DNA of 64,000 nt from Acinetobacter phage vB_AbaM_ME3. Positions 11,324 to 56,345 of the stretch are shown piece by piece. Below the pieces are notes generated by a model. That model ran no database searches and had not been told where the DNA came from. It was given only the letters and a program-made list of their open reading frames with translations. Position numbers and translations under genes: made by a program. Position 1 is the stretch's first letter. The number at the start of each line of letters is the position of its first letter. The stretch is from the sequence record KU935715.1, one strand, 5' to 3'.

Positions 11324-11332
11324 ATATTCTTC

Positions 11333-11746: not shown

Positions 11747-11757
11747 TTTATATCCAA

Positions 11758-11792: not shown

Positions 11793-11796
11793 TATT

Positions 11797-12420: not shown

Positions 12421-12499
12421 TACCTACTAACTCATGAGGAAATTCTGGTACTTGACTTATTGTTTGCCCAAGATAAGCATCAGCCATTATAATTCTTCC

Positions 12500-13945: not shown

Positions 13946-13951
13946 ATTATA

Positions 13952-14140: not shown

Positions 14141-14141
14141 A

Positions 14142-23628: not shown

Positions 23629-24708
23629 CTATTTCCTTAATTCGTTAGGAACAATTCTTTTAAATCGCCAATGGTTACTTCCATCAGCAATATGATTTGC
23701 TCTAACTAATTTACAAAGTTTATTTCGAAATTCAGAATAATGAAAAGATTTAGTTGTACGAACTACTATACCTTCATGTCCTGCTTTAACAACTTGTTTA
23801 AATAAATCATTAATTACAACTTCATCGTATGGTCCTCGATATATTTCTTGAACCATTGTCATACCTAACAATTCAAACCATTCTTTTGTATCATCCCAAG
23901 ATAGACATATGTCCTTATCCCACACTTGGAATCCGTACAAATATGAATCTAAATCTTGATAATGAATTGCATGTTTAGCATATAAATTCTCTGCATAGTA
24001 ACGCATACCTTCAGGAATATTATAAGCAATATGTTGATAATGGAAGTTCTTTGCCCAAGCACGAGATTCATGATCTAAAGAATCGATAGAACGAGCATGA
24101 CAATAATCGGGGTATCCCGCAAAGTTCTCTCCATCCATTTTAATAGTTATTACAATTTCATCAGATACTAAATGATGTGATATATTGTAATTAGTTTTAT
24201 CATCTTCAGTTTTATGAGCACTTAAAGGATGATGATACGAACGAGGATACTTGTAATAATGAGTAAATTCATCTAGTACTCCGCCATCAGATAAAACTTT
24301 CTGAACTGATTCATCATAGAATAATGGACCAGGCATTCTCTTACCATTAAGAAGAATGATGTTACCCCATTTATCATATTGATGATCAGGGTACATATAT
24401 TCAGGAAGAACAACTTTTTGAGCTCCTACCTTCTCTCTTACTTCATCACAACTAATAACTGTTTGTTCGCACTTTAAATGACAAGAATCACAGACGGTAC
24501 CAGCGTTTTCGATATGATAGCCAAAACAATCCGAAAATAAACGTCTTTCGACAATGTGATGCACAGATAATTTCTCTGTACTACCACAGAAGATACACTT
24601 GTGGTTGTCTCTTATTAAACCTTGTTCTCTAAATTCATCTCTAGATAAAGGTTTCCCATCTGTTCCATGACAACCACAAATTGTTGAGTGAGGTTTACTA
24701 GATTTCAT
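23629..24708 (-). CDS. Rnl2-like ATP-dependent RNA ligase with N-terminal Cys/His (HNH-like) zinc-finger domain
   Basis: Nucleotidyltransferase motif I IKMDGEN (KxDGxN, as in T4 Rnl2 KIHGTN). Motif IV/V HEGIVVRTTK...FRNKLCK. The N-terminal 80 aa is rich in C/H pairs (CGCHG...CIFCG...HHIVERR...CDSCH). Confidence 0.55.
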   Translation of the reverse strand: MKSSKPHSTICGCHGTDGKPLSRDEFREQGLIRDNHKCIFCGSTEKLSVHHIVERRLFSDCFGYHIENAGTVCDSCHLKCEQTVISCDEVREKVGAQKVVLPEYMYPDHQYDKWGNIILLNGKRMPGPLFYDESVQKVLSDGGVLDEFTHYYKYPRSYHHPLSAHKTEDDKTNYNISHHLVSDEIVITIKMDGENFAGYPDYCHARSIDSLDHESRAWAKNFHYQHIAYNIPEGMRYYAENLYAKHAIHYQDLDSYLYGFQVWDKDICLSWDDTKEWFELLGMTMVQEIYRGPYDEVVINDLFKQVVKAGHEGIVVRTTKSFHYSEFRNKLCKLVRANHIADGSNHWRFKRIVPNELRK

Positions 24709-34308: not shown

Positions 34309-34583
34309 TTAGTTACTAATTCAGCTAAAGACTTAGTAGTATGAGTTATAGAAAACTCTTGTACAATTCCTGTACTTCCAATAAAAGTAAACTTGAGTCT
34401 ACCTTTTTTGTTACAAACTTCTAAAGTAGTGGCCTGAACACCTTTAGTAACACTACTTAAGAGGGAAGAATATTTTAATTTATATTCTTTGTCATCAATA
34501 ATAATACTATTTGTATTAGGTTTAGGCGTAATCTCTAAACCATCTATAATTAATTCTTTTAATTTTGTAATTGTGATAAACAT
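34305..34583 (-). CDS. hypothetical protein (92 aa)
   Basis: ORF track. Confidence 0.5.
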   Translation of the reverse strand: MFITITKLKELIIDGLEITPKPNTNSIIIDDKEYKLKYSSLLSSVTKGVQATTLEVCNKKGRLKFTFIGSTGIVQEFSITHTTKSLAELVTK

Positions 34584-34954
34584 TAAGATCTCATAAATTT
34601 AATAAAATTTTCAATATAACAATTAATATTTTCTTTTCCAATAGGATTCATACTATGAACATACCATGTTAAATCATTAGGTTCTAAACTCATATCAACA
34701 ATAGTATCACATAAATATTTAGCAGCATGATACCCTGTATATTCATTATGAGTATTATCAAAACAAGCTAAATCATGATCAAAAGAAAATACATAATCTT
34801 TCAAGTCTACAGAAAGATGGCATAACGAATCACACCAATCTTTAAATTCATCATATGTTCGTAGAATAGTAATAGAAGAAAATAACTGATTATAATTCAA
34901 CCATGTTACATCTTCAACAACTCGTTCATCATCTAAAAAAATTAATTTTTTCAC
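34583..34954 (-). CDS. hypothetical protein (123 aa)
   Basis: ORF track. Confidence 0.5.
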   Translation of the reverse strand: MKKLIFLDDERVVEDVTWLNYNQLFSSITILRTYDEFKDWCDSLCHLSVDLKDYVFSFDHDLACFDNTHNEYTGYHAAKYLCDTIVDMSLEPNDLTWYVHSMNPIGKENINCYIENFIKFMRS

Positions 34955-36027: not shown

Positions 36028-38055
36028 TTAAATAGATACTTGATATACACGTTGGGTTTTACCTGATACACGTACTACAAATTCATTGTTAGTACTGTCA
36101 TTAAATCCAACACCACTTAATTGTTCTTCTGAAGGAGCAACACGTAGTTTACTTCCTAAGACTTCGAAGACTTTACGATGTTTCGTTAATTCTGGACGTA
36201 AGAATTCGTTAAAGAAACTACGAGGTGTTTCTGGATTCTTACAACCTTCTAACATAAACATATAATGCTTATTACCTTCAGCTTGATCGCCCCAATGATT
36301 TGGAGAATTCATGACTAAGCTTACAGGAACAAACGTATTTGTATTAATACCCCAAATCTCTTGACCTGGACCATCAGAGCTTTCTAATAATTGACAAACT
36401 TTTTTAACAGTAAAACCAGTACCATCAAATTCAATATCAAGCATTGTTTCATTTTGATTGAAAGCTTTTTCATATGTGAAGTTTTGTACTACACCATCAG
36501 CTTCAACTTGTAAAACAAAACCAACATTAGTATTAGAACGTTTAGAGTAATTATTTACAATTACACGATAAACCCCTTTAGTCATACGACGACGATCAGG
36601 GTAGATAATATTTTCAACTGGCTCTGTATCTGAATGTTTATCCAAACCATTCATATCTAAATCTAATGTACCACCATTACTAGAATGCTTATTTCGATAC
36701 CAGATACGTTGACCTGTTGGCTCCTGAATAGATAGATCTAAATCATCAGCATTAAACCAACTCAATGATACTCGAAGATCACCTTCAACTGAGCCACCAA
36801 ATTTCTTAACAGTTTCACGAATTGAATCTGTAATGTCTCCATTGTAAGCCCATGAAAAACCATTATCCCAACGTAATAATGAAGTACGTGGTTGAACAGG
36901 GGCAATTAAAGAAACAAAGTTTGGTTTCAATTTGTTAGTGACTAACAATTCAACTTTATTAGATGTAGGTAATACATTTGCTAAAAAGTCTTTAATTCCA
37001 ATAGCAATAGCTTTGGTTAAGATTTTAGGATCAAATTTTGAAGAAGCTTCTTGTGTAAGATCATCAAATACATTTAAAGCTTTTTTAGCATTTGCAGAGA
37101 ATAATACTTCAGATACATTAATATCTGTTTCTTTAGCAAATCGACGTTGGAGATCATCTTCGAGTCCTAAACTTTTAACTACTTCTTGTGCTTCTGAAAT
37201 CATACGAGGTGTGATTACAGCTGAAGTACGTTTGTAGTTAGTAGGAGCAACTTTAGATTCAAATTTAGAAACAGCAGTATCTAAATCAATACCTGAACTA
37301 ATATCTTCTACTAATGTTCCAATAACTGTATTACGGAAACGAGCATTAAAATGTTCTGTAGCAACTGTATGCCAAATAAATGCTTCTTTATTAGCTTCAG
37401 GAACAGCTTCATATTTCTTTTTAAGATCTACAAAAGCTTTAACTTGAGAACGGAATTCATTTCCACGATAAATAGAATTACCATCAATTAGCTCAAGAAC
37501 TGTCTCAGCAGCATCTAAAGAAAATTCCTTTAATCCACGTTGAATTACTTGATAAGAATTATTGTATTCACCAACAACAGAAGAAAAATCATTTACCGAA
37601 ACAACTAAAGACTTAGGAACTTCAGCGTAAAAATGATTCCAGCTTACATTACGAACTAAGTCTTTAGTTGTAGCTGAACCAATAATAGCTGTTTCAGAGC
37701 GATATACAGCTGCAATAGGAGTATCAAGAACAAATTTATTTAAAGCATTTGCTACAGCTTGATAGTATCCCTCTACTTCTACATTCCAGATAGATGTTTT
37801 CTTAAATGTACGAGGATCAATTGCAACAACACCACCCATACGACGAATAAAAGACTTACAATTATTACAATCGTATTCACGTCGTTCTTTTAACATTGGG
37901 TTAGTGCCTTCAGGGAATGCAGATAAATAAGTTTCCCAAAGAACATCTGGATTAATATCAACACGAACAAGCACTAATCCAGCAGCAGTTAAAGTACGAA
38001 TTTGTTGATAGATAGCTTTTTGAAAATTAATAAAGTTACTCATCTTCTTCTCCAA
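36028..38055 (-). CDS. large protein of the Ter-associated operon; C-terminal region with TerD-like signature
   Basis: 675 aa. The C-terminal segment LRVSLSWFNADDLDLSIQEP...GGTLDLDMNG echoes the GWD...DLDLS core of the TerD domain at 41521..42132. First gene of an overlapping-ORF operon. Confidence 0.5.
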   Translation of the reverse strand: MEKKMSNFINFQKAIYQQIRTLTAAGLVLVRVDINPDVLWETYLSAFPEGTNPMLKERREYDCNNCKSFIRRMGGVVAIDPRTFKKTSIWNVEVEGYYQAVANALNKFVLDTPIAAVYRSETAIIGSATTKDLVRNVSWNHFYAEVPKSLVVSVNDFSSVVGEYNNSYQVIQRGLKEFSLDAAETVLELIDGNSIYRGNEFRSQVKAFVDLKKKYEAVPEANKEAFIWHTVATEHFNARFRNTVIGTLVEDISSGIDLDTAVSKFESKVAPTNYKRTSAVITPRMISEAQEVVKSLGLEDDLQRRFAKETDINVSEVLFSANAKKALNVFDDLTQEASSKFDPKILTKAIAIGIKDFLANVLPTSNKVELLVTNKLKPNFVSLIAPVQPRTSLLRWDNGFSWAYNGDITDSIRETVKKFGGSVEGDLRVSLSWFNADDLDLSIQEPTGQRIWYRNKHSSNGGTLDLDMNGLDKHSDTEPVENIIYPDRRRMTKGVYRVIVNNYSKRSNTNVGFVLQVEADGVVQNFTYEKAFNQNETMLDIEFDGTGFTVKKVCQLLESSDGPGQEIWGINTNTFVPVSLVMNSPNHWGDQAEGNKHYMFMLEGCKNPETPRSFFNEFLRPELTKHRKVFEVLGSKLRVAPSEEQLSGVGFNDSTNNEFVVRVSGKTQRVYQVSI

Positions 38056-38239
38056 AGATTTCTTTTTGTGATTCTTCAGTTAAACCTGTTTTAATGAATT
38101 CACGTTCAGTAGGTGTTAAATGAGGGAAAGCATTTTGAATTAATGTACCACTAGCATAAGAATCTAGTTGAGCTTGAGTTACATTTAAATCAAGAGTATT
38201 CAATTTCCCTGTATAAGGATCAACTCGTTGAATTTGCAT
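38036..38239 (-). CDS. hypothetical protein (67 aa)
   Basis: ORF track; 20-nt overlap with the upstream gene; acidic C-terminus. Confidence 0.45.
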   Translation of the reverse strand: MQIQRVDPYTGKLNTLDLNVTQAQLDSYASGTLIQNAFPHLTPTEREFIKTGLTEESQKEIFGEEDE

Positions 38240-38241
38240 AA

Positions 38242-39309
38242 TTATCTCAAAATAGCTATAGCTTGATAAGGTGAAATATTTGAATCAATCTCTATTTCAA
38301 CTTCTAATGGATCTGCAAGAGATTTCATAAAATGATAAACAGAAGCTGAAGAACCTGAACAAATAATTAATCGAGGTTTTCGACGAAGTAATGCACGAGT
38401 GCATTCACTAATCGTTGGCTTGATCTTTAGTTCATCTTGAACATTATAAGTTTCAGTAACATGATCAATAACAAAATTTGTACGCCGATCACATTGCTGC
38501 TTCAGATAAGAAGTAACCTTAGCAGGAATACTATCAAATTTATCTAATACTTCAGTAATTTGATCAAGAAAGTAGTTAGTTACATCATACTCTTGAAGAT
38601 TCTGATATATTGCACATGTGTGATATTTACCTTTATCTGAAATTACAGAACGAGATAATAACCCACTAATTACACTATTAAGAATTCCAAAAGGAATAAT
38701 TTCATCAGTGTCTGTAGCATAGATATCAGAGATATGATTAATGTCATTTAAGACTACTAAACGAAAAGGTTTCATACCTAAAGGTAAACCTAACTGTCTC
38801 CAACTTTCACGCAACTGATTGAAAATTGTTCCTTTACCAGTCCAACCATCTACAAAGAATAGATCACATTCTGCACTATGTTTTTCGATAATATGATTAA
38901 ATGCTAATTCATCTAATCCAAAATCTCGAATAATAGATAGTGCATAATGGTGTACTTTAATCTTATAACGTAGTTCTAGAGAACGTTTAATTAATACACC
39001 TAAAGGTAGTCCAGCTCGAATTAAACTAGCTAATACAATATTGTTTTTATCTTTTGATTGTTCAAAAATTGCATCAGCTAATCCATTAATCCATTTACCT
39101 AAACTAATACGATATGAGTAAGAACTCATTAAACGATTAAATTCAGATAATTGTTCACGAGATGGAGCATCTTCAGATAACAGAAAAGATGAATAATGTT
39201 CACCAGAAGCAATACGAGCTTCTTTTTCATCTTTAGTGATAAATGTATGATCTGTAGAAATATTTAATAAAAGGGTAACATCTTCTGGTTTAAATGTACT
39301 AAAAGTCAT
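38242..39309 (-). CDS. phosphoribosyltransferase (type I PRTase-like) paralog A
   Basis: PRPP-loop-like LFFVDGWTGKGT. Its N-terminal region AGLPLGVLIKRSL is paralogous to the second PRTase (AETGLGLGYLVHNQL). Confidence 0.5.
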   Translation of the reverse strand: MTFSTFKPEDVTLLLNISTDHTFITKDEKEARIASGEHYSSFLLSEDAPSREQLSEFNRLMSSYSYRISLGKWINGLADAIFEQSKDKNNIVLASLIRAGLPLGVLIKRSLELRYKIKVHHYALSIIRDFGLDELAFNHIIEKHSAECDLFFVDGWTGKGTIFNQLRESWRQLGLPLGMKPFRLVVLNDINHISDIYATDTDEIIPFGILNSVISGLLSRSVISDKGKYHTCAIYQNLQEYDVTNYFLDQITEVLDKFDSIPAKVTSYLKQQCDRRTNFVIDHVTETYNVQDELKIKPTISECTRALLRRKPRLIICSGSSASVYHFMKSLADPLEVEIEIDSNISPYQAIAILR

Positions 39310-40025
39310 GATAATAACTCTTTAATAATTTGAACATTATCTTTAGTAGGAGTCATTAAGAAATCACATTCTAACATAAAGAACAGATCAGATTTTGAAT
39401 CACCTATACCAATAGTAACTACACCTGGATGTAGCTCTAACATCTTTTTCTTAATGAAACGAACAGCATCTGTTTTAGGTTTTAATGTTTTAGGGAATAT
39501 AGAAAAACCAGTACCATTAATATACAACTCAAGCCCTTTGTGTTGCTTTAGAATAGAATTTAATTTTAATAAATCCGTAGACTTGTTGTTAATGTTCCCT
39601 TCAATATAAAACCCATAAGTTTTATGAGTAATTAATTTTGAATGAACATTATACAAATGAAGGTACTTAATACTTTCTCTTAATTCATTCTGACTACTAG
39701 ATACTTTACCAATAAGGGTGTCAGTAAATTCTGGAATCAATTTATTATCATAGGTATAAATAAATACACCATAATTACAAACTTTAAATGAGTTAAAGTT
39801 AAAAGTTGATTCAACACGTTTTAAACTTTCAATAGATCTAGCAGTTACAGGAATAACACCACTAGAGCCTGAGTTAAATTCATTAAATAAAGAAATTTGT
39901 TTAGGGGTAGTGCAAATATTACTACCAGAATCTGATGTATAAACAACGTGACGTGGTTCATCAGACTCTAGATGGCGTTCAGTTTGAATGAAAGTTAAAT
40001 CGAGATCACAAAAGCTTAAAAACAT
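39306..40025 (-). CDS. HAD-superfamily phosphatase
   Basis: Motif I FCDLDLTF (DxDxT) at the N-terminus. Motif IV GIGDSKSDL near the C-terminus. Confidence 0.6.
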   Translation of the reverse strand: MFLSFCDLDLTFIQTERHLESDEPRHVVYTSDSGSNICTTPKQISLFNEFNSGSSGVIPVTARSIESLKRVESTFNFNSFKVCNYGVFIYTYDNKLIPEFTDTLIGKVSSSQNELRESIKYLHLYNVHSKLITHKTYGFYIEGNINNKSTDLLKLNSILKQHKGLELYINGTGFSIFPKTLKPKTDAVRFIKKKMLELHPGVVTIGIGDSKSDLFFMLECDFLMTPTKDNVQIIKELLS

Positions 40026-41133
40026 TTACATTATTCCATGCAACCAATGATTCTATTAATGAACTTTGAGGAGCATCTTCGATAGATAAACACACAGAAT
40101 CAAGTCCTTTATTTAATAGGTCATCGAAATTATATAGATATGATTCCATTGTGGAATCATAAAGATTAGGAAGTACAAGTTTAGTCTTAATAATAGTATT
40201 AAGCTTTAACGGAGAAGATGAAATAGACAACAATACTGAATCTTTTCCAGTATTATTAAATTTATTTATACAATTTAGAAGAGAAGCAAAGATTAATTCA
40301 TCATAATAAATCTGAATATCAGAACTATTGAAGTACTTAGGATCTTTACATTTAGAGACAATGTCTGACAAAGAGTCAAACGAAGGTAATCTGAAATGAT
40401 CATTAGTTACATTTGTTAATGATACATTATCAGATTTTTTATAAGGAAGATGTGGTACTGGAACATTCGAATCTTGTTCCCAAGTATAAGTACCTTTAAC
40501 TAACGAATAAGTCTTTAGTTCAACATCATCTACTGTTAAATTTGAAGACCAATCTGTTAAAGAGAGAACAATAACTTTTCTTAAACAAGGTAATTTTTCT
40601 TTAAGAGATTCAACTAAATTCTTAATAGTATTACCTGTAGTGACTTCATCATCTACAATAATTAAAGTATTTGTTTGTTCTAAATGCTCATTAACAGATT
40701 TGTCAAAAGACTTATAGATATAATGATTAGGGAAATGACTATGAGGTTCTACAAATTCAGCAAGAACAGGAGCAGATAATGTTCTTCGTGTAGTTTGTAG
40801 ACGTAGAATATTAACCCAATCTTTAGATAATTGGTTATGAACTAAATAACCTAACCCTAAACCAGTTTCTGCTAAAGAGAGCAGAGAAATTTTATTATTT
40901 TCACCTTCTAAGTCTTTAGACTCAATTTGTTCACTAAGAGACTTAGCTATAGAGTTTAATATACTAAAAGGTGTAGGGGTATAACGACCAATTACTTTAG
41001 ATACGAACATGAACTGACGTTTAGGATTTAAACGTTCAGCTAAAGAGCAAATACTATCAAAACGATAATGTTCAGTTTCGAAATTCAGAGATAATTTTCC
41101 AGTATTTAAATTATACTCTTTAAAATTTGACAT
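40006..41133 (-). CDS. phosphoribosyltransferase (type I PRTase) paralog B
   Basis: Canonical PRPP-binding loop TLIIVDDEVTTGNT (hhhhDDxxxTGxT) at about residue 150. It has a ~200-aa C-terminal extension. Confidence 0.65.
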   Translation of the reverse strand: MSNFKEYNLNTGKLSLNFETEHYRFDSICSLAERLNPKRQFMFVSKVIGRYTPTPFSILNSIAKSLSEQIESKDLEGENNKISLLSLAETGLGLGYLVHNQLSKDWVNILRLQTTRRTLSAPVLAEFVEPHSHFPNHYIYKSFDKSVNEHLEQTNTLIIVDDEVTTGNTIKNLVESLKEKLPCLRKVIVLSLTDWSSNLTVDDVELKTYSLVKGTYTWEQDSNVPVPHLPYKKSDNVSLTNVTNDHFRLPSFDSLSDIVSKCKDPKYFNSSDIQIYYDELIFASLLNCINKFNNTGKDSVLLSISSSPLKLNTIIKTKLVLPNLYDSTMESYLYNFDDLLNKGLDSVCLSIEDAPQSSLIESLVAWNNVNVFKLL

Positions 41134-41136
41134 GTC

Positions 41137-41436
41137 TTAATCCTTTTTAGGATAGATATATTGTTGGTATTGAGCAATTGCAGCAGCTGAAGAGAAACCT
41201 TTATCAAGAAGAATACATCGAACAGTATCTTCAATATTCTCCAGACTAACCATAACATCTTGTAAAGATAAAGGTGGTTTTGGTTCTTCATCGAAGTCTT
41301 GATAATCTAATTGAGATTCTATCTTTTCAGCAGATCCTTTCTTTTCTTTTTCAGAAATATCTAATAAGGACTCTTCAATATGATGCAGGCTCATTAAGAT
41401 GTCTAAAATGAGTTTTGTATTATCTTGGTGTGACAC
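41137..41436 (-). CDS. hypothetical acidic protein (99 aa), GTG start
   Basis: GTG at 41436 preceded by an AAGGA Shine-Dalgarno. It lies downstream of the intra-operon terminator. Confidence 0.5.
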   Translation of the reverse strand: MSHQDNTKLILDILMSLHHIEESLLDISEKEKKGSAEKIESQLDYQDFDEEPKPPLSLQDVMVSLENIEDTVRCILLDKGFSSAAAIAQYQQYIYPKKD

Positions 41437-41447
41437 TTTAAATCCTT

Positions 41448-41482
41448 CTGAAAAAGAAAAGGACAGAATATTTCATCTGTCC
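41448..41482 (-). terminator. intrinsic terminator after TerD gene
   Basis: 7-bp stem GGACAGA / TCTGTCC with an 8-nt loop. The minus-strand RNA hairpin is followed by UUUUCUUUUUC. Confidence 0.55.
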
Positions 41483-41520
41483 ATCTCTTTGTTATTTATT
41501 CAATTTAGAAATTTTAAATC

Positions 41521-42132
41521 TTATTCGGTTTTAGCACCATAAGATTGTAATACTTCTTCTAAGCCGTTATCAAATCCAAGATCGATTTTCTTAACTCGCC
41601 AACCACCATCATGACGATAGATTTCAGCAACATTAACAGCTTTAGATGCAGCATGATCTTCAGTCAAATCAATTTTGAGTGAATCCATACCATCAACATT
41701 TACATCAACGTAAGCATTTTCAACTTGACCAAATGTGATACCAAGATTCTTTTCATCATGGATACTCATAAGTACCATGATACATCCAATTTCGGGTGGT
41801 AGGGTTTCTAAATTTAGATTACCATTTTCATCATAACCGTCACCAGAACCATCACGATTGTCTTTATCAAGAACAATACTACCACAAGCCGATTTTAACA
41901 AGTTATAGAAAACAATTCCTGGATTTCCATCAGACTGTGTTACAAGATTTTTAGATTTTGAATCTGCTAATAAAATAAAACTTAAATCTAAGTCATGTTT
42001 AACATTAGATTGACGAGCAGAATCCCAACCACAGCCTACATGTACACTTTTTAAAGATACAGCAGAACCATCAGGTTTAGCTAAACGAATAGGTACACCT
42101 TTAGTTAAAGGGATAACATGTTGAGTAGTCAT
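41521..42132 (-). CDS. terD: TerD-domain protein (tellurite-resistance TerD/TerZ/CABP family)
   Basis: Collinear with bacterial TerD: KG..I.L.K, the VGLGWD block (HVGCGWDS), DLDLS, the acidic Ca-binding run DNRDGSGDGYDENGNLNLE, and the C-terminal block EIYRHDGGWRVKKIDLGFDNGL. Confidence 0.85.
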   Translation of the reverse strand: MTTQHVIPLTKGVPIRLAKPDGSAVSLKSVHVGCGWDSARQSNVKHDLDLSFILLADSKSKNLVTQSDGNPGIVFYNLLKSACGSIVLDKDNRDGSGDGYDENGNLNLETLPPEIGCIMVLMSIHDEKNLGITFGQVENAYVDVNVDGMDSLKIDLTEDHAASKAVNVAEIYRHDGGWRVKKIDLGFDNGLEEVLQSYGAKTE

Positions 42133-42142
42133 AATAAAATCC

Positions 42143-42493
42143 TTATGAAATTGTAAAACGAATAACAGGAGGAAGACCTGTTACTGAATAATTTATAATT
42201 GGTTCACGTTGGTTAGTTTTAATGTGTCTATAAGATGTAAGCTTTTTAACTAACCTTTCATGTTCCCATTTTTTAAACTTAGTCTCAGACTGCTCTAACA
42301 TCTGAGAAATATAAGGCGCCAAAAAACTTCCTGTATCTTTTAAGCTAAGGAGTTCTTTTCTGTACTCTTGAAGAGTTGACGCATATACTAAAATGAGCCT
42401 ACCTGACTGAGTACGAATTAAAGTTCCTTTATCAGTAATAAATAATTCGTACTCAAGTTGAGGTAGTTGTTTATTATGCTGCAAGTGTTCCAT
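42143..42493 (-). CDS. hypothetical protein (116 aa)
   Basis: ORF track; operon member. Confidence 0.5.
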   Translation of the reverse strand: MEHLQHNKQLPQLEYELFITDKGTLIRTQSGRLILVYASTLQEYRKELLSLKDTGSFLAPYISQMLEQSETKFKKWEHERLVKKLTSYRHIKTNQREPIINYSVTGLPPVIRFTIS

Positions 42494-43586
42494 TATCAGA
42501 ACTACTTTCTTTTTTGTTTTCTCGAATAGATGAGAAAACAGCTAAGATGATGAAGGCAATACTAATAAGGCCTACAGCAACTTCTGGTAGATGAATAAAC
42601 GGAGAAGAAAGCATAATCAATGCTAATGCTGCAATTGCATACATAGCACCATGTTCAAGATAACGATATGTATCAAGAGTTCCTTTCTTAACTAAATAAA
42701 CAGTTAAGCAACGAACAACCATAGCACCAATAGCTAAACCAAGCATGATAACAATAATGTCAGTAGTAACAGCAAAAGCTCCAGCTACACCATCAACGCT
42801 AAATGAAGCATCAACTAATTCTAGATAAAGGAAACCACCAATACCTGCTTTAACTGTACCAGTTGCTACTTGACCATTCGCTTCAGATTCTTCTTCAGTA
42901 TCACCAGTAAACATTTCAATAATGGAGCCTAAAGCTTGCACACCAAAATAAGAAGCGATACCTACGAGACCACCTTTAAAAATCTGACTACTTAAAATAG
43001 CATCTGACATTGTAATTACAATTAAGGCTGCAAGAACAATAAATGCAAACATATAAGGAGTAAACCAACCAAAGGTTTTACCTAATACTTCACCAACCTT
43101 CTCTAAAGGTCCTAACCAGTTAACATCTTTTTCATCATCAAAGAAGAAGTTTAAGAACACCAACAATAAGAACATACCACCAAAAGAAGCAACTAATGTA
43201 TGGCTTGCTAAAAGATGTTTAGAGTATTCGGTAGGACTATTAAGTGCTAATGTAAAAGATTCAATAAACGACATTTCTGTTGTGGATGAAACAATTACAA
43301 TAGGAAATACGAGTCGCATACCAAATACAGCAACAAGAATACCAACTGTTAAAAATAACTTTTGCCAGAATGGATTCCAATGTTTTAAAACTGTGGCATT
43401 ATATACAGCATTATCAATTGATAATGAAATTTCCAGTACAGCTAAAATAACTGTAATGAATAAGATATTGAATGCTTGACTTAATCCTGCATCTACACCG
43501 TGATTTAAACCCCAGAAGAAAGCTAAGGTTAAACACACCAGACCAAAGATGATAGAAAGTTTGAAGTTATCCCAAATATTTTTCAT
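42474..43586 (-). CDS. polytopic integral membrane protein (TerC-like?)
   Basis: 370 aa with about 8-9 hydrophobic helices. Its position in a Ter-type operon suggests a TerC/DUF475-like transporter, which is inference. Confidence 0.5.
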   Translation of the reverse strand: MKNIWDNFKLSIIFGLVCLTLAFFWGLNHGVDAGLSQAFNILFITVILAVLEISLSIDNAVYNATVLKHWNPFWQKLFLTVGILVAVFGMRLVFPIVIVSSTTEMSFIESFTLALNSPTEYSKHLLASHTLVASFGGMFLLLVFLNFFFDDEKDVNWLGPLEKVGEVLGKTFGWFTPYMFAFIVLAALIVITMSDAILSSQIFKGGLVGIASYFGVQALGSIIEMFTGDTEEESEANGQVATGTVKAGIGGFLYLELVDASFSVDGVAGAFAVTTDIIVIMLGLAIGAMVVRCLTVYLVKKGTLDTYRYLEHGAMYAIAALALIMLSSPFIHLPEVAVGLISIAFIILAVFSSIRENKKESSSDNGTLAA

Positions 43587-43598
43587 GATTAATCCTTA

Positions 43599-44288
43599 TT
43601 AACCAAATTTTGCAATAACTTCAGGATTGACTACAGCATCAATTAATTCTGCATCAGTCTTACTGAAATCAGCAATACTAGAGTAACCAACTGAATCGTA
43701 ACGATCACCTAAGCTACTTAAGAAGTTTGAATGGAAGCCTACACAAATAAGTTGAACATATACATTATTTGATGATTCGATTTGTTTGATTTTAGCTTCA
43801 AACTCACGTTCGTCAGATGAAGAGGTTTCACCATCTGTAATAAAGGTAATAAGTTGTTTACCTTTAATGGAAGCCAATGGGTTACCAAATAACCCACCAA
43901 GGAATCCACCGCCACCAAGTTTCTTAAGAATAGCATCGATAGCTGGTGTATAAGCTGTACCGCCAAAACCATACTTACGAATGCTTTCACCTAAGATATG
44001 TTCTACTTGGTCATATTGGCTTACATTTAATGTCCCAGCATCAAATGCTTGGCTATGATAAACAACAAATGGTAAGTTACCATCATCATCAATTACATTA
44101 CTAATACCAAGAAGATGACGAAGAATATTAGCTACAGTACCATTACCAAAGTAGTTAGACATACTTCCTGATTGATCTAATACTAAAGAGACATTAATGT
44201 CTTTAGGAATATTTGTAACACCTTTCTTTTGAAGAGAAATTACTACATCTTCAGAAACTTTTTTCAGAGAGATTACTTGAGAAGTCAT
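43599..44288 (-). CDS. vWA-domain protein (TerY-like)
   Basis: MIDAS motif VSLVLDQSGSM and a downstream conserved T (GGTAYTPAI); 229 aa. Confidence 0.7.
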   Translation of the reverse strand: MTSQVISLKKVSEDVVISLQKKGVTNIPKDINVSLVLDQSGSMSNYFGNGTVANILRHLLGISNVIDDDGNLPFVVYHSQAFDAGTLNVSQYDQVEHILGESIRKYGFGGTAYTPAIDAILKKLGGGGFLGGLFGNPLASIKGKQLITFITDGETSSSDEREFEAKIKQIESSNNVYVQLICVGFHSNFLSSLGDRYDSVGYSSIADFSKTDAELIDAVVNPEVIAKFG

Positions 44289-45250
44289 TATACTTCACCT
44301 ACATAATGGTTAGCGGTAACTTGGTATTGATCACCAAATAATTTAATAAGTTCTTTCTTGAGAACATCCATAGGATAATCATCAATGTTAGAGATTTTAA
44401 CAATTTCATAACGTTCTTGATTATGGAAATTTTGATAAATAATCTTACGACCAATAGCTTTATCAAAATGATCATTTACATGACATAATGCAGAACTTAC
44501 TGCCATATATGTCATTCCATTATGAACGAATAATAAAGCTAATCCAGTAATACCACCAGTAGAATTTAAATCTACTTCTTCGTTAGGATTTTTAACTTGC
44601 TGTTCGCAAATGTATTCAAATGTTCCATACATATTTTCGTAGAACTTATTATTATAACGACGAATATAAATTGGAATTGTTTGAATATTACGTGCAAGTA
44701 ATCCTTCAAATTGGGCAGTAATAGTAGACTTAGCTAAAATCTCTAACTCTGCTTCTTTGGCAAAAGTAAGAGGATGTACACCAGTATCTGGTTTTTCTTG
44801 TTTAGGTAAAGGAGCTTTTTCAAGAACTACTTTATTAATGAAACGATAGAATTGGCTCAATACTTTAGGATATTGGCGATCTTCAGTTTCTAAGATAATT
44901 TGATTATTAATTAATTGAGATTTTAAACGATCTTTTGCTTCTACACGACCGATTAAGCGAGAATAAGTATCTTCTTTACTACAAATAGCATAAGAATACT
45001 GAGGAAGAGAAAGTGAAGGGGAAACTAAAATAGCAACACATACACCGTTAATACGATTTGTGTTATAACGACGAGCGTTATTAATTTTAGTGGCTAATAA
45101 GTGACTGTGGTGAAAGATATATACTTTCGAGTCTGGATAGTTTTCTTTAAACCAACTATTTAGTTGGATGTCAGATTCATGATAAGCAACATTGAAATTG
45201 ACTTGACGATTTTTCTTAGCAGATGGATTTCCAATCTGAGCAACTGTCAT
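44288..45250 (-). CDS. hypothetical protein (320 aa), last gene of Ter-associated operon
   Basis: ORF track; 1-nt overlap with the vWA gene. Confidence 0.55.
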   Translation of the reverse strand: MTVAQIGNPSAKKNRQVNFNVAYHESDIQLNSWFKENYPDSKVYIFHHSHLLATKINNARRYNTNRINGVCVAILVSPSLSLPQYSYAICSKEDTYSRLIGRVEAKDRLKSQLINNQIILETEDRQYPKVLSQFYRFINKVVLEKAPLPKQEKPDTGVHPLTFAKEAELEILAKSTITAQFEGLLARNIQTIPIYIRRYNNKFYENMYGTFEYICEQQVKNPNEEVDLNSTGGITGLALLFVHNGMTYMAVSSALCHVNDHFDKAIGRKIIYQNFHNQERYEIVKISNIDDYPMDVLKKELIKLFGDQYQVTANHYVGEV

Positions 45251-45345
45251 TTTTACTATATCCTTAAAAGGTAAAGTGTGTGGAAAGAAGTTTTAGTTGC
45301 ACATTAAGGCAACTATTCTTCAGTAATAAATAAAAAATAAAAAGA

Positions 45346-45942
45346 CTATAAGCCTAAGTTCTTTAACAGAGTCTTAGATAAGTTCTGTTTAGCCCAAGTG
45401 ATATAAGCTGGATCAACATGTTGAACTTCTTTTACAGTTCTTCCTTTATATCGACCCATAGTAAATGTAGGTTCAGAATAAGTATAGAAGTGCATAGGAT
45501 GTACTTTAATCTTATTAAATACTGAATCAAAGTATTCATTCATTGATTGAATAGCTAAAGGATCTGTTACTACTAAAGCCATATCATCATAGCTACTTCC
45601 TGTAAGATTTATACCACCTATGATAGCTTTATTACCACGAGATATATACTTTAAATGAAGATTTTTAGCTACATGAATATTATAATTTTTAGACAATCCT
45701 AATAAATTATTAGATCGTTTTTGATTATTCACATCACAAGCTTTACAACCTACAGTACAAGAACTATATGAAGTTCCAATCATTATCGATGAGGGTGCAG
45801 CTAAAGTTAAATCTAAAAAACGTTCAGTATCTTCATTACGAACAGATAAATTAAAAGAGGATATACGAACTTGACCTCTTTCTCTTTGCAGTATATTAGT
45901 AGCTTCACTAATAAACTCTGCATAAGTTTTTAATACTTTCAT
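45346..45942 (-). CDS. hypothetical protein (198 aa)
   Basis: ORF track. Confidence 0.5.
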   Translation of the reverse strand: MKVLKTYAEFISEATNILQRERGQVRISSFNLSVRNEDTERFLDLTLAAPSSIMIGTSYSSCTVGCKACDVNNQKRSNNLLGLSKNYNIHVAKNLHLKYISRGNKAIIGGINLTGSSYDDMALVVTDPLAIQSMNEYFDSVFNKIKVHPMHFYTYSEPTFTMGRYKGRTVKEVQHVDPAYITWAKQNLSKTLLKNLGL

Positions 45943-46568: not shown

Positions 46569-46590
46569 AGGCAACTATTCTCCAGTTGTA

Positions 46591-47502: not shown

Positions 47503-48273
47503 CTATAATTCTGTTCGAAAGATAAAATCAGTATTAAATCTAAATCGTTTAAATTCAGAAGAATTAATTCGATCTTGAATTCGATTAGCTACTGAATGAG
47601 GTACTGTTATTCCTAATTCATAATCTTCAAATTGTTGGTAAGTAAATCCAAGTTCTTGTTCATCTGTTCGTCCTGAAGCTAAACCTCCTTTAGGTGGAGT
47701 ATTTAATATTTCTTCAGGTATATTAAAATATTTAGCAATTGCTATTACTTCACTTTTATAAAATTCAATAATAGGATGAATACCAAGAATATCTAAATAC
47801 TGACTAAACCAACCTAAAGACCATTCAGAATAATTAGTAGTACTTACAAGAATACTATTTTCATTTCGTGTAGCTTCGGCATAAAAAGCCATTGGACGCA
47901 ACCAATAGTCATTTTGTTGTTGAAGATAAGGAGAAGTTAAACTTAAAGCATTTACACAAGCTTTAGCTACTTCTCGTAAACTTATAAATTTTTCTTCATA
48001 TTCGAAATGAGTACAAACAGCTTTACCTAAATTATAAGCTTCTTCTTGTTCTGTAGTTCCATCACTTTCTGAAATAGGAGCAAGAATAGGAATTACTGTA
48101 TATGTATTAGGATACATAGTATCTAAAGCTTTTAGAAATCCTAAAACTACAGCAGAATCAACACCACCTGATACACCAACAATTAAAGTTTTACGACTTT
48201 CTTTTTGTAAAACATTATGAAGAAGATTTACTTTCTTTGTAATCAATTCATGAGTAATTGTTTTATAGATCAT
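47503..48273 (-). CDS. nadE: NH3-dependent NAD+ synthetase-like PP-loop ATP pyrophosphatase
   Basis: PP-loop motif LIVGVSGGVDSAVV near the N-terminus. The C-terminal block TPPKGGLASGRTDEQELGFTYQQFEDY parallels the NadE block KAPTADLE...DE.ALGVTYD.IDDY. 256 aa. Confidence 0.65.
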   Translation of the reverse strand: MIYKTITHELITKKVNLLHNVLQKESRKTLIVGVSGGVDSAVVLGFLKALDTMYPNTYTVIPILAPISESDGTTEQEEAYNLGKAVCTHFEYEEKFISLREVAKACVNALSLTSPYLQQQNDYWLRPMAFYAEATRNENSILVSTTNYSEWSLGWFSQYLDILGIHPIIEFYKSEVIAIAKYFNIPEEILNTPPKGGLASGRTDEQELGFTYQQFEDYELGITVPHSVANRIQDRINSSEFKRFRFNTDFIFRTEL

Positions 48274-51213: not shown

Positions 51214-52341
51214 TTAAGACATTAAAGAAATCTCTTTCATAAGATCTTCAAAGCTTTGTTTATTCTGTTCACGTGCAACTTCAGTTTGATGTTCATGCTG
51301 ATAGATTACATTATAAATTGGTTCTAACAACATACCAAAATAAGTATCTTTCTGAATGAACTTCTGATGTTCTTCTAGCTTTTCTTTTACTTTATCTTTA
51401 GGTTGAGTACCTTTATTATAAAGTTTAAGAAAAGCTGCACATGCTTCATACATACCTGTAATTTCAGCCCAAGATGTAATACGAACAATATCACTTACAG
51501 ACTTATCATCTAATTCTAATGGACCTAACAATAATTCACGAACCTTTTTAGAGTTCGCTTCTTTTGCAATATTCTTAAGGAATAACATTTCAAAGTTGGC
51601 ACTGCCACCTTCATTATGTTTAATCCCAGTAACAACGAAATCCTGTAAACCTCGAATATAAGCAAAATGATACTTAAAGAACTTAGCACGAGATAAAGAA
51701 ATCATTGGAATCTTTTTGTTAGGTTCATTAGGTGGTGAATATTCATAATTATTTCGTTTAGCATAACTTTCATATGCTTCAAGAATCATTGCAAATATCC
51801 AACCATCATTAGTTGCGAGTCCTACCGCCCCTTTAGCCTGAACAGCTTGAAATAGGTATGTGCTATAAGATGGAATTACTTCACGACCTTTCTTAGAGTC
51901 TTCCAAAGCAACGTCATAGAGTTTATATGGTTCATCTACTAATTTCTTAGTAACTGGATCAATTAATGCATCATTAGCATCATATTCACCTTTAATGTAT
52001 GTTTGAGTCCATTCAAGTTCTTCTTTACATACATCAGTTAACACAAACTCACGAAGAAGCTTTTGACACTCTGGTGAATTACCTGTAAACACAGGTGAAT
52101 GATCGCCATCAACATCGGAGTGTTCCGCCCCTAATACGTTTTTACTAAATAACAGAATTGATTTATTCTGCTCTTTAAGTAAATACTTTTCAATAGAAAT
52201 ACCATATTGATTCATAAGATAAATACGATAATCATCATAAGACCAGATTTTTACTCGGACGAGCTGGGTTCTCCATAACGAAATCTTCAATACAAGCCGA
52301 AAACTTGTACCAGCAGCATTATCTGCATCTATAGTTATTAA
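51214..52341 (-). CDS. 3' exon of intron-split gene of unknown function
   Basis: The frame is open from just after an in-frame TAG at 52342..52344 to the stop at 51214. There is no ATG or Shine-Dalgarno at its 5' end (the track start is TTG). It lies directly downstream of the group I intron core. It contains an acidic DVDGDH motif. Confidence 0.55.
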   Translation of the reverse strand, partial: LITIDADNAAGTSFRLVLKISLWRTQLVRVKIWSYDDYRIYLMNQYGISIEKYLLKEQNKSILLFSKNVLGAEHSDVDGDHSPVFTGNSPECQKLLREFVLTDVCKEELEWTQTYIKGEYDANDALIDPVTKKLVDEPYKLYDVALEDSKKGREVIPSYSTYLFQAVQAKGAVGLATNDGWIFAMILEAYESYAKRNNYEYSPPNEPNKKIPMISLSRAKFFKYHFAYIRGLQDFVVTGIKHNEGGSANFEMLFLKNIAKEANSKKVRELLLGPLELDDKSVSDIVRITSWAEITGMYEACAAFLKLYNKGTQPKDKVKEKLEEHQKFIQKDTYFGMLLEPIYNVIYQHEHQTEVAREQNKQSFEDLMKEISLMS

Positions 52342-52673
52342 CTATACGTCGAGACTATATCTTAATTTATACATATACTTATAGAATGATTATGTTATCT
52401 TTATCATTCAATATATGTATAAACCACAAGCACTTCGGAAACTCTTGTTCCCTACTCCTTCCTACAGGATAGTCGTTGAACCTTACTCTTAGGTAAAACC
52501 CTTAGAGTCTTGGCTGCTGATATTGCATTTACTCAGCGTAATTATAATAACTAATAGATAATTACACATGAATCTTCACACTTTTTAAACATTCACGCTT
52601 GCTATTTCTAGCTACGTTGTAGTGTATGAAGCTTTAGCCTTTCCCAGCAATTCACTTGTGTTACGACAGATGT

Positions 52674-53405
52674 CTATTCATCTGAAGAGCTTTTAATCTT
52701 TTCTTCAATAAAAGATTTAATTTCATTTAAAGCTTTAAATTTAAATAATTCAGTACAGCCTTTAAATGCATTACCATCTGAAATGTAATAACGATCAGAG
52801 TCAAAAGTACTAAGTACTAATTTTTCTATATTAACTACATCTCTAGCTTTAGCTTCTAAGTCTAGTATTACTTCTTTTTCGAATTGTTTATAAACAACAG
52901 GTTTAAACCTATCTTCAACAGTTCGTGAAGTTACACCAACTTTTATAAATTCATACTGTTTTGATTTAAATTTAACTAAATAAATACGAGCAGGTTCTAA
53001 TCCAGATTCATCAAGATTAGTCATTCCACCAAAACGAGAAAGTTTTAATCTTCCACATTTTGGACAACCATTGCCTTGTAAGTGACTATTAGGTTCTTGC
53101 TTAAAATCACCATGATGAGGACATCCAATAGTAATTTTAATATTCCAAGCCTTATAATCAACTTTTGAATAATCGTATTTAGTACCATGCATTTTTACAA
53201 AATCTTCAATAACTTTATCTTTCGATTTAGTATTTCTTTTAGATTTTGCATTAGTCTCACAAGGTTTACAACCATTAAAATGTAGATGATTTGCAGGTGT
53301 CTGTTCAAAAGTATTAGAACATTGATTACAAATTATCTTAATCTTAACATTGTTTTTATTGTAGTCTATTAACGAATAATCAAAACGATTTCCGCCATAC
53401 TGCAT
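52674..53405 (-). CDS. intron-encoded homing-endonuclease-like protein (T5orf172/GIY-YIG-like C-terminal domain, tandem Cys zinc-ribbon repeats)
   Basis: The C-terminal block ARIYLVKFKSKQYEFIKVGVTSRTVEDRFK fits the GIY-(10)-YIG / T5orf172 pattern. The N-terminus has two repeats: F/YDYS..DY....KI.I.C..C/HH..F.Q.P..HL.G.GC..C. An upstream ATG at 53451 with an AAGGAG Shine-Dalgarno is +1 out of frame with it. Confidence 0.55.
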   Translation of the reverse strand: MQYGGNRFDYSLIDYNKNNVKIKIICNQCSNTFEQTPANHLHFNGCKPCETNAKSKRNTKSKDKVIEDFVKMHGTKYDYSKVDYKAWNIKITIGCPHHGDFKQEPNSHLQGNGCPKCGRLKLSRFGGMTNLDESGLEPARIYLVKFKSKQYEFIKVGVTSRTVEDRFKPVVYKQFEKEVILDLEAKARDVVNIEKLVLSTFDSDRYYISDGNAFKGCTELFKFKALNEIKSFIEEKIKSSSDE

Positions 53406-56222: not shown

Positions 56223-56345
56223 GTTTAATAACTTAATGTAACTATTCTCAAGTTAAAGATACATTAAGTTATTAAACAGAAAAGCTCACACAGATATTAA
56301 ATCCATATGAGCTTTATATAATTCTACTGTAATTCTGTAGAATTA
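56223..56345 (-). promoter_or_regulatory. cluster of three hairpins in intergenic region (candidate terminator / RNase III processing site)
   Basis: Perfect 18-bp inverted repeat GTTTAATAACTTAATGTA (56223..56240) / TACATTAAGTTATTAAAC (56260..56277) with a 19-nt loop. An 8-bp stem AAAGCTCA/TGAGCTTT lies at 56281..56315. A 9-bp stem formed by the last codons of gene 56324..56959 lies at 56320..56345. Confidence 0.5.

Follow-up and report, generated by a model that had tools for sequence, protein, structure and literature searches.

Acinetobacter phage vB_AbaM_ME3, a jumbo myovirus, carries a Ter system that includes the Ter-linked biosynthetic triad, arranged in the same order as in bacterial and plasmid loci, which bears out the core of a preliminary description of this DNA. 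Our leading, though tentative, reading is that it is a compact, phage-adapted form of the Ter system for stress and phage exclusion found in bacteria and plasmids, and that it helps protect the infected cell against superinfection and toxins. The cluster, described here within a 64,000-nucleotide stretch of record KU935715.1 (the window, whose numbering is used throughout), is already published: Buttimer et al. 2016 (PMC5000817) remarked on the ME3 Ter genes, and the same locus appears in Fig. 7c and section 3.4.10 of Iyer et al. 2021 (PMC7824862). The available text of these two papers does not give per-gene evidence and makes no mention of the g320 and g99 families, other phage-like relatives, the relationship to PDB 6CJ0, or how the 675-aa neighbor g675 should be classed. 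New here are the conservation of eight cluster genes, g320 and g99 among them, in divergent jumbo-phage-like contigs, the homology of the phage HAD protein to the crystallized Pseudomonas aeruginosa “trehalose phosphatase” (6CJ0), itself encoded by a Ter-module gene, and the identification of StiP as a PRTase fold without a conserved cysteine.

Structurally, every ORF in 45250..36028 lies on the minus strand, in line with the co-orientation reported earlier, and the ORFs of at least 60 aa number 11 rather than the 12 genes first counted. They encode vWA-TerF-like, DUF475 (TerC-clan), TerD, PRTase_2, HAD phosphatase, and StiP/PRTase_1-PELOTA proteins, plus five unnamed products. Overlapping stop and start codons, first ascribed to the whole set, occur at five of the ten junctions (1, 20, 20, 4, and 8–20 nt), with gaps of 2–84 nt elsewhere. 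The catalytic, MIDAS, and Ca-site motifs of the cluster are intact, the six core genes have dN/dS values of 0.05–0.31, and no PADLOC defense-system model matches the ME3 Ter gene set.

Transcriptionally, the cluster is apparently expressed as a single minus-strand operon. The upstream intergenic region (45251..45345, minus strand) is a probable promoter or regulatory region with the ribosome-binding site for the cluster: it retains 92% identity across ME3-like contigs, where synonymous divergence of the flanking genes is 0.4–1.1, and it contains CTGAAGAATAG, which has only two other mismatch-free copies on the same strand (46575 and 56242), both intergenic. Between terD and g99, a consensus scan placed an intrinsic-terminator-like hairpin and T-run (41451..41490, minus strand), with a stem at 41482..41461 (dG −17.7 kcal/mol, z −4.2) that none of 200 shuffled sequences equaled in stability and that shows a compensatory C:G to T:A change in two related contigs (L003 and L006). 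The hairpin and T-run reported after terD are thus real, but the proposed split into two transcription units is unsupported: because only ~14 nt (41437..41450), including the ribosome-binding site, separate the end of the T-run from the g99 start codon, a partial terminator or attenuator inside one operon is more likely, and the hairpin is probably such an attenuator.

Three proteins make up the membrane-proximal set. The vWA protein (43599..44288, minus strand) matches PF10138 vWA-TerF-like (E 8e-18) and phrog_5359 (E 3e-70), and is 49% and 40% identical to its counterparts in contigs L007 and L021, respectively; its MIDAS motif, read from the sequence as DQSGS, agrees with the DxSGS noted previously, whereas the TerY-like label does not hold, PF10138 being the TerF C-terminal type. 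Next to it, the 370-aa protein (42474..43586, minus strand) described as multi-TM is a DUF475 polytopic membrane protein of the TerC clan (PF04332, E 6e-93; PF03741 TerC, E 4e-17) with about 8–9 hydrophobic segments. The TerD assignment at 41521..42132 (minus strand), a Ca2+-binding beta-sandwich family, is likewise secure (PF02342, E 1.8e-37), with a match to Klebsiella TerD (PDB 2KXT, E 2.4e-31) and invariant DN..G...GDxDE-type residues (D91, G95, G99, D101, and E102) in a 17-sequence alignment.

The triad begins with a PRTase_2-family phosphoribosyltransferase (40006..41133, minus strand; PF15609, E 2.5e-44; PF00156, E 3.5e-6) and ends with StiP/PRTase_1, which has a C-terminal PELOTA/L7Ae-like domain (38242..39309, minus strand; PF11202, E 6e-68; PF15608 PELOTA_1, E 1.6e-14). 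The two PRPP loops expected of these PRTases were found, as LIIVDDEVTTGNT in the former and LFFVDGWTGKGT in the latter. StiP adopts the PRTase fold in its AlphaFold model (pLDDT 93.7), whose top PDB fold matches are the type-I PRTases HGPRT and PyrR (probability 1.0), while its C-terminal profile matches L7Ae (E 0.003) and 46 homologues have no invariant cysteine in common. Its catalytic competence is uncertain, since the PRPP loop VDGWTGKG has one acidic residue instead of the usual two. Between these two genes lies the HAD-IIB-type phosphatase (39306..40025, minus strand), which had no match in Pfam and only weak matches in NCBIfam, yet hits PDB 6CJ0/6D3V with E 8e-42 as a 7-sequence profile and E 4.6e-11 as a single sequence; all four HAD motifs are present, with D7, D9, T11, T61, K184, and GDSxxD invariant, so the original HAD call stands.

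The cluster also encodes proteins without assigned families. The 320-aa g320 (44288..45250, minus strand), which contains two internal repeats and shares 1 nt of its stop codon with the start of the vWA gene, is a Ter-linked component so far seen only in phage-like contigs; it matches nothing in Pfam, NCBIfam, PADLOC, or PDB, has 28 remote relatives by phmmer, and evolves at dN/dS 0.10–0.22. In L021/L022 and L024, a single small ORF separates its relatives (35–41% identity) from vWA-TerF-like, which follows two genes downstream. The small acidic protein g99 (41137..41436, minus strand; dN/dS 0.09–0.11), always directly upstream of PRTase_2 in phage versions, has no Pfam family match; weak homologues fill its place in L010, at 30% identity (E 6e-7), and in L021, at 36% (E 2e-10). 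Neither g320 nor g99 had a match in the 80 bacterial Ter (StiP) loci compared. Two further small proteins occur only in the ME3 lineage: g116 (42143..42493, minus strand), basic, found in L003–L006, without a match in Pfam, NCBIfam, or PHROG searches and the fastest-evolving gene of the cluster (dN/dS 0.41–0.55), and g67 (38036..38239, minus strand), acidic, detected in just two of the loci compared, L003 and L006.

The conserved neighbor g675 (DUF8224/phrog_1735; 36028..38055, minus strand, annotated ATG start 38043) was rejected as a Ter component. Initially taken for the first gene, it is the last in the direction of transcription, and the TerD-like signature attributed to it found no Pfam TerD match, a BLASTP E of 8.9, and an hhalign probability of 0.3%. 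This protein is identical (100%) to ME3 FDH01_gp177, matches phrog_1735 (E 4e-257), carries a precomputed PF26675 assignment, and has no significant PDB match by Foldseek. The identity to gp177 marks the window as ME3, and its GC and strand bias agree with PMC5795418. Its family spans 530 phage records, including Ackermannviridae, mostly from phages without a TerD match in the searches made, and it was absent beside the Ter genes of L007, L010, and L021 and in all 80 bacterial Ter loci.

Evolutionarily, the homologs are linked rather than scattered, the linkage being conserved in related phages, and the TerD, PRTase, and HAD assignments have profile support. Four ME3-like contigs are collinear over 11 genes (g67 being detected in L003 and L006), with StiP 73–83% identical to that of ME3; the 218 kb jumbo-phage-like contig L007 has the six core genes in common (36–57% identity), and L021, which ends inside PRTase_2, shares five core genes and also has counterparts of g320 and g99. 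The gene order PRTase_2-HAD-StiP recurs in R478, a P. aeruginosa plasmid, Moraxella, and Acinetobacter guillouiae, and at least 48 of the 80 bacterial loci have it. In a set of 50,697 phage records, PRTase_2/StiP appeared only in an ME3-derived piece of PBAB25 and one unverified fecal contig. That the phage holds the whole module was an overstatement: the ATPgrasp_Ter, HpcH-type C-C lyase, TerB, TelA, and TerY-P triad are missing from the cluster, and none was among the families returned by a Pfam scan of ORFs of at least 90 aa across the 64-kb window.

Functionally, we infer a role from the protein families and from the model put forward by Anantharaman 2012 and Iyer 2021. PRTase_2 would join PRPP and a base into a ribonucleoside 5'-monophosphate analogue, from which the HAD enzyme would remove the phosphate to leave a nucleoside-like molecule, and StiP may carry out a second ribosyl transfer or bind the product or RNA. 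A TerD/vWA/DUF475 complex at the inner membrane could then bind metal ions or the nucleoside-like ligand and so alter envelope or transport properties, with the terD-g99 hairpin probably keeping the enzymes at a lower expression level than the structural proteins. By analogy, the likeliest benefit to the phage would be that, over the long course of a jumbo-phage infection, the infected cell is shielded from superinfecting phages and from toxins that act on membranes. In enterobacteria, terZ-F is sufficient for tellurite resistance, and the ME3 set, which is without TerB, TerZ/TerA, TerC proper, ATP-grasp, and C-C lyase, may thus act differently.

An unlikely, though the best surviving, alternative is host maintenance, in which TerD, vWA, and DUF475 buffer metals (Ca2+, Mn2+/Zn2+) or oxidative or xenobiotic stress with no direct anti-phage role. 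The membrane-proximal set is consistent with this, as DUF475 belongs to the TerC clan, whose TerC family has been tied to Mn, Zn, and other metals (PMC10197570, PMC12054061, PMC12096827), and TerD matches the Ca2+-binding Klebsiella protein; the text of Iyer et al. also mentions xenobiotic resistance (PMC7824862), and tellurite sensitivity and an altered morphology have been reported for an A. baylyi stiP mutant (Reichert 2013, as cited in PMC11994780). However, host maintenance leaves it unexplained that purifying selection retains, next to the membrane proteins, a three-enzyme biosynthetic set and two proteins that have no counterpart in bacteria, and many phages retain just the TerD/TerC/vWA part.

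We consider it improbable that the PRTases and phosphatase serve counter-defense by rebuilding or destroying an immune nucleotide, such as NAD+ or a signaling nucleotide. The surroundings are suggestive, with an NAD synthase 2.2 kb upstream in ME3, NADAR and NUDIX domains in the window, NAPRTase, a Gad2-family protein, a PRPP-synthetase-like gene, Tpt1, and NUDIX flanking the L007 module, and NAPRTase 3.3 kb away in L010, and PRTase_2 weakly matches PRTase effectors of defense systems. Yet this neighborhood is mere adjacency inside a long auxiliary-gene block, similarity to known NAD-reconstitution enzymes ends with the PRTase fold, and PRTase_2-HAD-StiP is tightly linked to TerD/TerC in hundreds of bacteria and plasmids without an NAD context.

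Hypermodification, i.e., a non-canonical nucleotide made for phage DNA or RNA, would draw on the two PRTase-fold proteins and the PELOTA/L7Ae-like RNA-binding domain, and DNA modification is frequent in jumbo phages, but it is very improbable given that PRTase products are ribonucleotides, that the neighboring HAD would strip the phosphate required for incorporation, that a profile search of the cluster found no linked kinase, reductase, or transferase, and that homologous bacterial and plasmid modules adjoin TerD/TerC in Ter stress loci, not nucleic-acid-modifying enzymes. Just as doubtful is a module for a sugar-like compatible solute or glycoconjugate, with the HAD a true trehalose-6-phosphate-type enzyme. 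The P. aeruginosa “trehalose-6-phosphate phosphatase” (PDB 6CJ0, 6D3V, 6D3W) is a full-length homologue of the phage HAD at about 25% identity, its published substrate is trehalose-6-phosphate, on which it was active in vitro (PMC6838324), and relatives in the HAD-IIB group include sugar-phosphate phosphatases such as MPGP, so the phage substrate may be a sugar phosphate instead of a nucleotide. The gene of the P. aeruginosa enzyme, though, is itself flanked by PRTase_2 and StiP within a Ter locus, so the label may reflect promiscuous activity in vitro, and no trehalose-phosphate synthase is linked in the phage or the P. aeruginosa plasmid.

Among known systems, abbreviated phage Ter clusters (Klebsiella phiKp34/05F01, Caulobacter and Brevundimonas jumbo phages, and Lysinibacillus LysYB1) have TerD in common with ME3, and several also have DUF475/TerC and the TerF-type vWA, but unlike ME3 they are without PRTase_2 or StiP. 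In the host genus, the chromosomal Ter locus of A. guillouiae shares DUF475 (52% identity) and TerD, followed by PRTase_2, HAD, and StiP, whereas no g320, g99, or TerF-type vWA was detected across its 13 kb; its enzymes are 28–35% identical to those of ME3, which argues against a recent capture from the host. The R478 (IncHI2) ter locus, like E. coli O157 and Klebsiella loci, shares with ME3 a TerD-family protein, a TerC-clan membrane protein, and a vWA protein, and R478 has the collinear PRTase_2, HAD, and StiP/PELOTA as well, the ter proteins of the two being 24–36% identical. In addition, R478 encodes TerZ, TerA, TerB, TerC proper, TerE/F, an HpcH-type C-C lyase, DUF4236, TerW, and a TerX/TerY-PP2C-kinase set, ATP-grasp is present in P. 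aeruginosa and Moraxella Ter loci and absent in ME3, and g320 and g99 set ME3 apart from the 80 bacterial loci compared. The superinfection and toxin protection that we propose for the ME3 system parallels the phage inhibition and colicin resistance conferred by the R478 ter locus, according to citations in PMC8386662 and PMC8115787.

All ORFs between 36028 and 45250 lie on the minus strand, so that the genes are co-oriented as the preliminary description had it, although we counted 11 of them and not twelve. In the direction of transcription (unnamed ORFs are designated by their length in amino acids), these are g320 (45250..44288), the vWA protein (44288..43599), a 370-aa membrane protein of the DUF475 type (43586..42474), g116 (42493..42143), TerD (42132..41521), g99 (41436..41137), a 375-aa phosphoribosyltransferase (PRTase_2, 41133..40006), a 239-aa HAD protein (40025..39306), a 355-aa StiP protein (39309..38242), g67 (38239..38036), and a 675-aa protein (g675, 38055..36028), which had been taken for the first gene and is instead the last to be transcribed. 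Overlapping junctions, thought to run throughout, were found at five positions, whereas the other five junctions have gaps of 2-84 nt, the 84-nt gap being a minus-strand, hairpin-containing interval between TerD and g99. All coding in the window is on the reverse strand, in keeping with the strand bias that PMC5795418 lists for ME3. The G+C content of the window is 25-34% (about 30% overall), with 30.76% tabulated for ME3 (PMC5795418), and given the window values and this later figure, the 40% G+C of the ME3 genome announcement (PMC5000817) appears to be an error.

The TerD assignment was confirmed, with a Pfam match to PF02342 (E 1.8e-37) and a match to the Klebsiella TerD structure 2KXT (E 2.4e-31); the phage protein keeps the acidic Ca-site residues. 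The vWA protein carries the MIDAS motif DQSGS in its sequence and matches the vWA-TerF-like family (PF10138, E 8e-18, Pfam); the vWA and MIDAS parts of the earlier reading therefore stand, but its TerY type does not, since only the TerF-C profile was matched. That the 370-aa protein is a polytopic membrane protein holds as well: it has 8-9 hydrophobic segments and matches DUF475 at E 6e-93 and TerC at E 4e-17 (Pfam), and on these profiles it is assigned to the DUF475 family of the TerC clan rather than to TerC proper. Pfam returned no match to TerB or TelA among the cluster proteins, and neither was among the 24 Pfam families found when the window's 80 other ORFs of 90 aa or more were scanned. 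The TerY-P triad (TerY vWA, PP2C phosphatase and kinase) was not found in the cluster and had no PADLOC match, and PADLOC gave no system-level match for the cluster.

The predicted biosynthetic enzymes are encoded by three consecutive genes. PRTase_2 matches PF15609 (E 2.5e-44, Pfam) and has an intact PRPP loop, VDDEVTTGNT. The HAD protein had no Pfam match and only weak NCBIfam matches; in an alignment with the proteins encoded at the same position in phage and bacterial loci, however, it showed four invariant HAD motifs (D7, D9, T11; T61; K184; GDSxxD), and the resulting profile matched PDB entries 6CJ0/6D3V over its full length (E 8e-42), in agreement with the proposed HAD phosphatase. Its gene sits between the two PRTase-fold genes, in synteny with the IncHI2 plasmid R478, a P. 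aeruginosa plasmid and A. guillouiae. The HAD of the P. aeruginosa plasmid (NZ_CP083368.1; 9211-9969 of locus L012), whose gene likewise has PRTase_2 and StiP as its neighbors, gave E 2e-159 against 6D3V, and the crystallised P. aeruginosa “trehalose-6-phosphate phosphatase” (6CJ0, 6D3V, 6D3W) is, by this match and gene position, assigned to the Ter-module HADs, with a physiological substrate that may be other than trehalose-6-phosphate.

The StiP protein matches PF11202 (E 6e-68) and PELOTA_1 (PF15608, E 1.6e-14) in Pfam, and its AlphaFold model (pLDDT 93.7) found the type-I PRTases HGPRT and PyrR as best fold matches in the PDB (Foldseek, probability 1.0), with a weak match of the C-terminal part to L7Ae. 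An alignment with 46 homologues contained no invariant or nearly invariant cysteine, while RAG.P.G and VDGWTGKG are invariant in the N-terminal domain (window 38242-39309 and the same homologues). The database name “cysteine protease StiP” thus looks doubtful, and the modeled fold speaks for a PRTase-fold protein instead. Because of this fold and the lack of a conserved cysteine, the presence of two PRTases, as originally proposed, is better supported than the database name.

Two ORFs of the cluster represent new Ter-linked families, g320 and g99, neither of which was matched in the 80 bacterial Ter (StiP) loci compared. An exhaustive phmmer search found 28 relatives of g320, and in two further lineages, the more distant jumbo-phage-like contigs L021/L022 and L024, relatives that share 35-41% identity are encoded two genes ahead of vWA-TerF-like, TerD and DUF475 genes. 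The protein contains two repeats that both terminate in C..D.[YF].[RK]..GR, and had no PDB or Pfam relative, including with a profile query. The small acidic g99 immediately precedes PRTase_2 in L010 and L021 as well. The 675-aa protein, 100% identical to ME3 FDH01_gp177, corresponds to phrog_1735 / DUF8224, a family present in 530 phage records, Ackermannviridae included. The TerD-like signature ascribed to it did not hold up: there was no match in the Pfam library searched, BLASTP gave E 8.9, an hhalign profile-profile comparison gave a probability of 0.3%, and Foldseek against the PDB returned no significant match and no TerD among the 50 matches listed. Its gene does not adjoin Ter genes in the more distant phages and is absent from the 80 bacterial loci, and on this distribution it is best regarded as a neighbor rather than a Ter component.

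Downstream of terD, the hairpin at 41451..41490 (-) is stable (dG −17.7 kcal/mol, z −4.2) and its stem shows a compensatory change in relatives. It had been described as an internal terminator that splits the cluster into two transcription units; the element itself is well supported, but a single operon in which the hairpin attenuates transcription is more probable than two separate units. Only ~14 nt, with a ribosome-binding site, lie between the end of its T-run and the g99 start codon. At the other end, the 95-nt region upstream of g320 (45251..45345) is 92% conserved and contains a CTGRAGAATAG motif common to two other intergenic regions. Without mismatch, CT[GT][AG]AGAATAG occurs on the minus strand only at 45313-45323, 46575-46585 and 56242-56252, each intergenic and upstream of a gene, and may mark a promoter or regulatory element of the phage, with overall counts of the pattern only ~2x chance expectation. 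A scan for sigma-70 promoters gave fewer sites than shuffled controls (25 vs 51).

Elsewhere in the window, a group I intron (RF00028, Rfam) was detected at 52329-52720 (-) with the full-length model (51 bits, the gathering threshold being 50; E 5e-10). The minus-strand ORFs on either side of it, 52674..53405 and 51214..52290, probably represent two exons of a single gene. The window also encodes further conflict and repair functions, namely an RNA ligase whose N-terminal part matches HNH endonucleases (23629-24708), a Ro/TROVE-like RNA-binding protein (2177-3622), a cREC phosphoesterase-type receiver domain (34583-34954), and a PLD-like protein (45346-45942), carrying an ExoX-like motif at its C terminus, that adjoins the Ter cluster on its upstream side.

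We also found that more phage lineages carry the Ter module. All eleven genes are present in identical order in four ME3-like contigs from public sequencing runs (L003-L006), whose StiP is 73-83% identical to that of the window, and one further contig encodes a StiP with 93% identity. Among the more distant contigs, L007 (218 kb) has the six core genes (vWA, DUF475, TerD, PRTase_2, HAD, StiP) at 36-57% identity, flanked by genes for DHFR, NAPRTase, a PRPP-synthetase-like protein, Tpt1, NUDIX and a Gad2-family protein. L010 (234 kb), which ends just upstream of the cluster, has TerD, a g99-like ORF, PRTase_2, HAD and StiP, followed by DHFR and NAPRTase genes, and L021, which ends inside PRTase_2, has vWA, two TerD genes, DUF475 and PRTase_2. 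The expected conserved linkage was therefore found, in these phages (L003-L007, L010) and in the gene order of bacterial loci. Separately, a 345-kb viral contig with 42.5% GC (L016, IMGVR_UViG_3300045988_179014) encodes DUF475, two TerD genes, PRTase_2 and StiP, such that a further jumbo-phage lineage may have Ter biosynthetic genes.

The biosynthetic genes were rare in the viral collections searched. StiP or PRTase_2 occurred in 2 of 50,697 phage records (a collection that excluded the ME3 records KU935715 and NC_041884), namely PBAB25 (PRTase_2 only) and an unverified faecal contig; an alignment-based scan of IMG/VR yielded 4 loci only, a single-protein IMG/VR scan found nothing, and an exact-protein look-up of the window's StiP returned no record. 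By megablast against the phage collection, the 16 kb neighboring the cluster had no match, and the cluster itself matched Acinetobacter phage PBAB25 alone (L001, MG366115.1), in which a 4-kb piece (10417-14249) is 99% identical to the ME3 Ter cluster. This piece shows PBAB25 to be a chimera or mixed assembly in which sequence of an IME_AB3-like siphovirus is combined with that of an ME3-like jumbo phage; the record is labeled UNVERIFIED and listed as a Lokivirus of 40 kb. The PRTase_2, HAD and StiP triad is, by contrast, common among bacteria and plasmids, and was found in 2,573 plasmid records and the genomes of at least 595 species. Evolutionarily, recent capture of the cluster from the host can be ruled out, because phage StiP reaches at best about 36-40% identity to bacterial proteins and 35% to Acinetobacter. 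All eleven genes are under purifying selection, with dN/dS of 0.05-0.31 among the six core genes and a maximum of 0.55, in g116. Identities are mosaic, with PRTase_2 91% identical to L006 vs 79% to L003, and TerD, vWA and g320 closer to L003, which suggests recombination within the cluster among ME3-like phages. It is conceivable, though we put it forward only tentatively, that a low-GC jumbo clade (ME3, L007, L010, L021, L024) has a distinct, vertically inherited phage-type Ter system, with components of its own (the two-repeat g320 ahead of the vWA gene and g99 ahead of PRTase_2), that would need only three enzymes to make a small nucleoside-like effector.

Functionally, beyond the identities, motifs, synteny and selection, which are observed, a mechanism can be inferred from the protein families and the published model. 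PRTase_2 would join a base to PRPP, the HAD enzyme would remove a phosphate from the product to leave a nucleoside-like molecule, and StiP could carry out a second transfer or bind the product or RNA, with a TerD/vWA/DUF475 complex, together with g320, working at the inner membrane. Even in bacteria, the nucleoside-like metabolite is no more than predicted (PMC8115787). The best supported benefit, and quite possibly the actual one, would be to keep out competing phages and toxins that act on membranes, as the R478 ter locus is cited in two papers for phage inhibition and colicin resistance (PMC8386662, PMC8115787). Iyer et al. proposed that the Ter cluster serves jumbo phages in warding off superinfecting phages or in making the host resistant to xenobiotics (PMC7824862). 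That the cluster maintains ion or stress homeostasis in infected cells seems to us unlikely. More doubtful still is counter-defence through nucleotide or NAD metabolism, for which the sole hint is the neighboring genes: NAD-related genes lie near the Ter module in three phage lineages, as an NAD synthase in ME3 (window 47503-48273), in L007 at 2040-3680 and 12263-13120 (NAPRTase, PRPP-synthetase-like, Gad2-family) and as a NAPRTase in L010 (9032-10642), and NADAR and NUDIX domains occur in the window (Pfam, ORFs of at least 90 aa). Nucleic-acid hypermodification and a sugar-phosphate pathway are both very improbable.

The Ter cluster of ME3 already appears in two papers (PMC5000817; PMC7824862) and the finding is therefore known at the bioinformatic level, with abbreviated TerC/TerD/TerF/TelA clusters of other lytic phages also on record (PMC8386662); in the literature searched, experiments on the phage cluster or on the bacterial biosynthetic product did not turn up. 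The preliminary description was thus largely correct and its core interpretation sound, while several of its details were wrong, and function is predicted. Ter systems are found widely among pathogens and on plasmids, and have for decades been associated with resistance to tellurite, colicins and phages. A stripped-down version under purifying selection in a lytic phage shows a minimal gene set to be held together across divergent phage lineages. For phage-versus-phage exclusion, as for metabolite identification, the ME3 cluster offers a small, genetically separable model and, if the proposed reading is true, no system may be easier to work with than ME3 for identifying the Ter metabolite and the membrane target of that metabolite, because ME3 is a cultivable lytic phage with the minimal set.

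In comparison with known systems, the Ter-linked biosynthetic module of Anantharaman, Iyer and Aravind (2012) reportedly includes, in its five-enzyme version, an ATP-grasp and a TIM-barrel C-C lyase. Neither the ATP-grasp (ATPgrasp_Ter) nor the lyase was found in the ME3 cluster or among the Pfam families of the other window ORFs, so that the biosynthetic module of the phage is a reduced one and the phage Ter module as a whole, judged by its gene content, a reduced version that lacks ATP-grasp, C-C lyase, TerB, TelA and the TerY-P triad. The suggestion that the whole bacterial module is present thus stands for PRTase_2, HAD and StiP/PELOTA but not for ATP-grasp, C-C lyase, TerB and TelA. The Moraxella and P. 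aeruginosa loci have both ATP-grasp and C-C lyase, and R478 has the C-C lyase and the TerY-P triad, whereas none of these was found in the ME3 window; the gene order PRTase_2, HAD, StiP recurs in R478, the P. aeruginosa plasmid, Moraxella and A. guillouiae.
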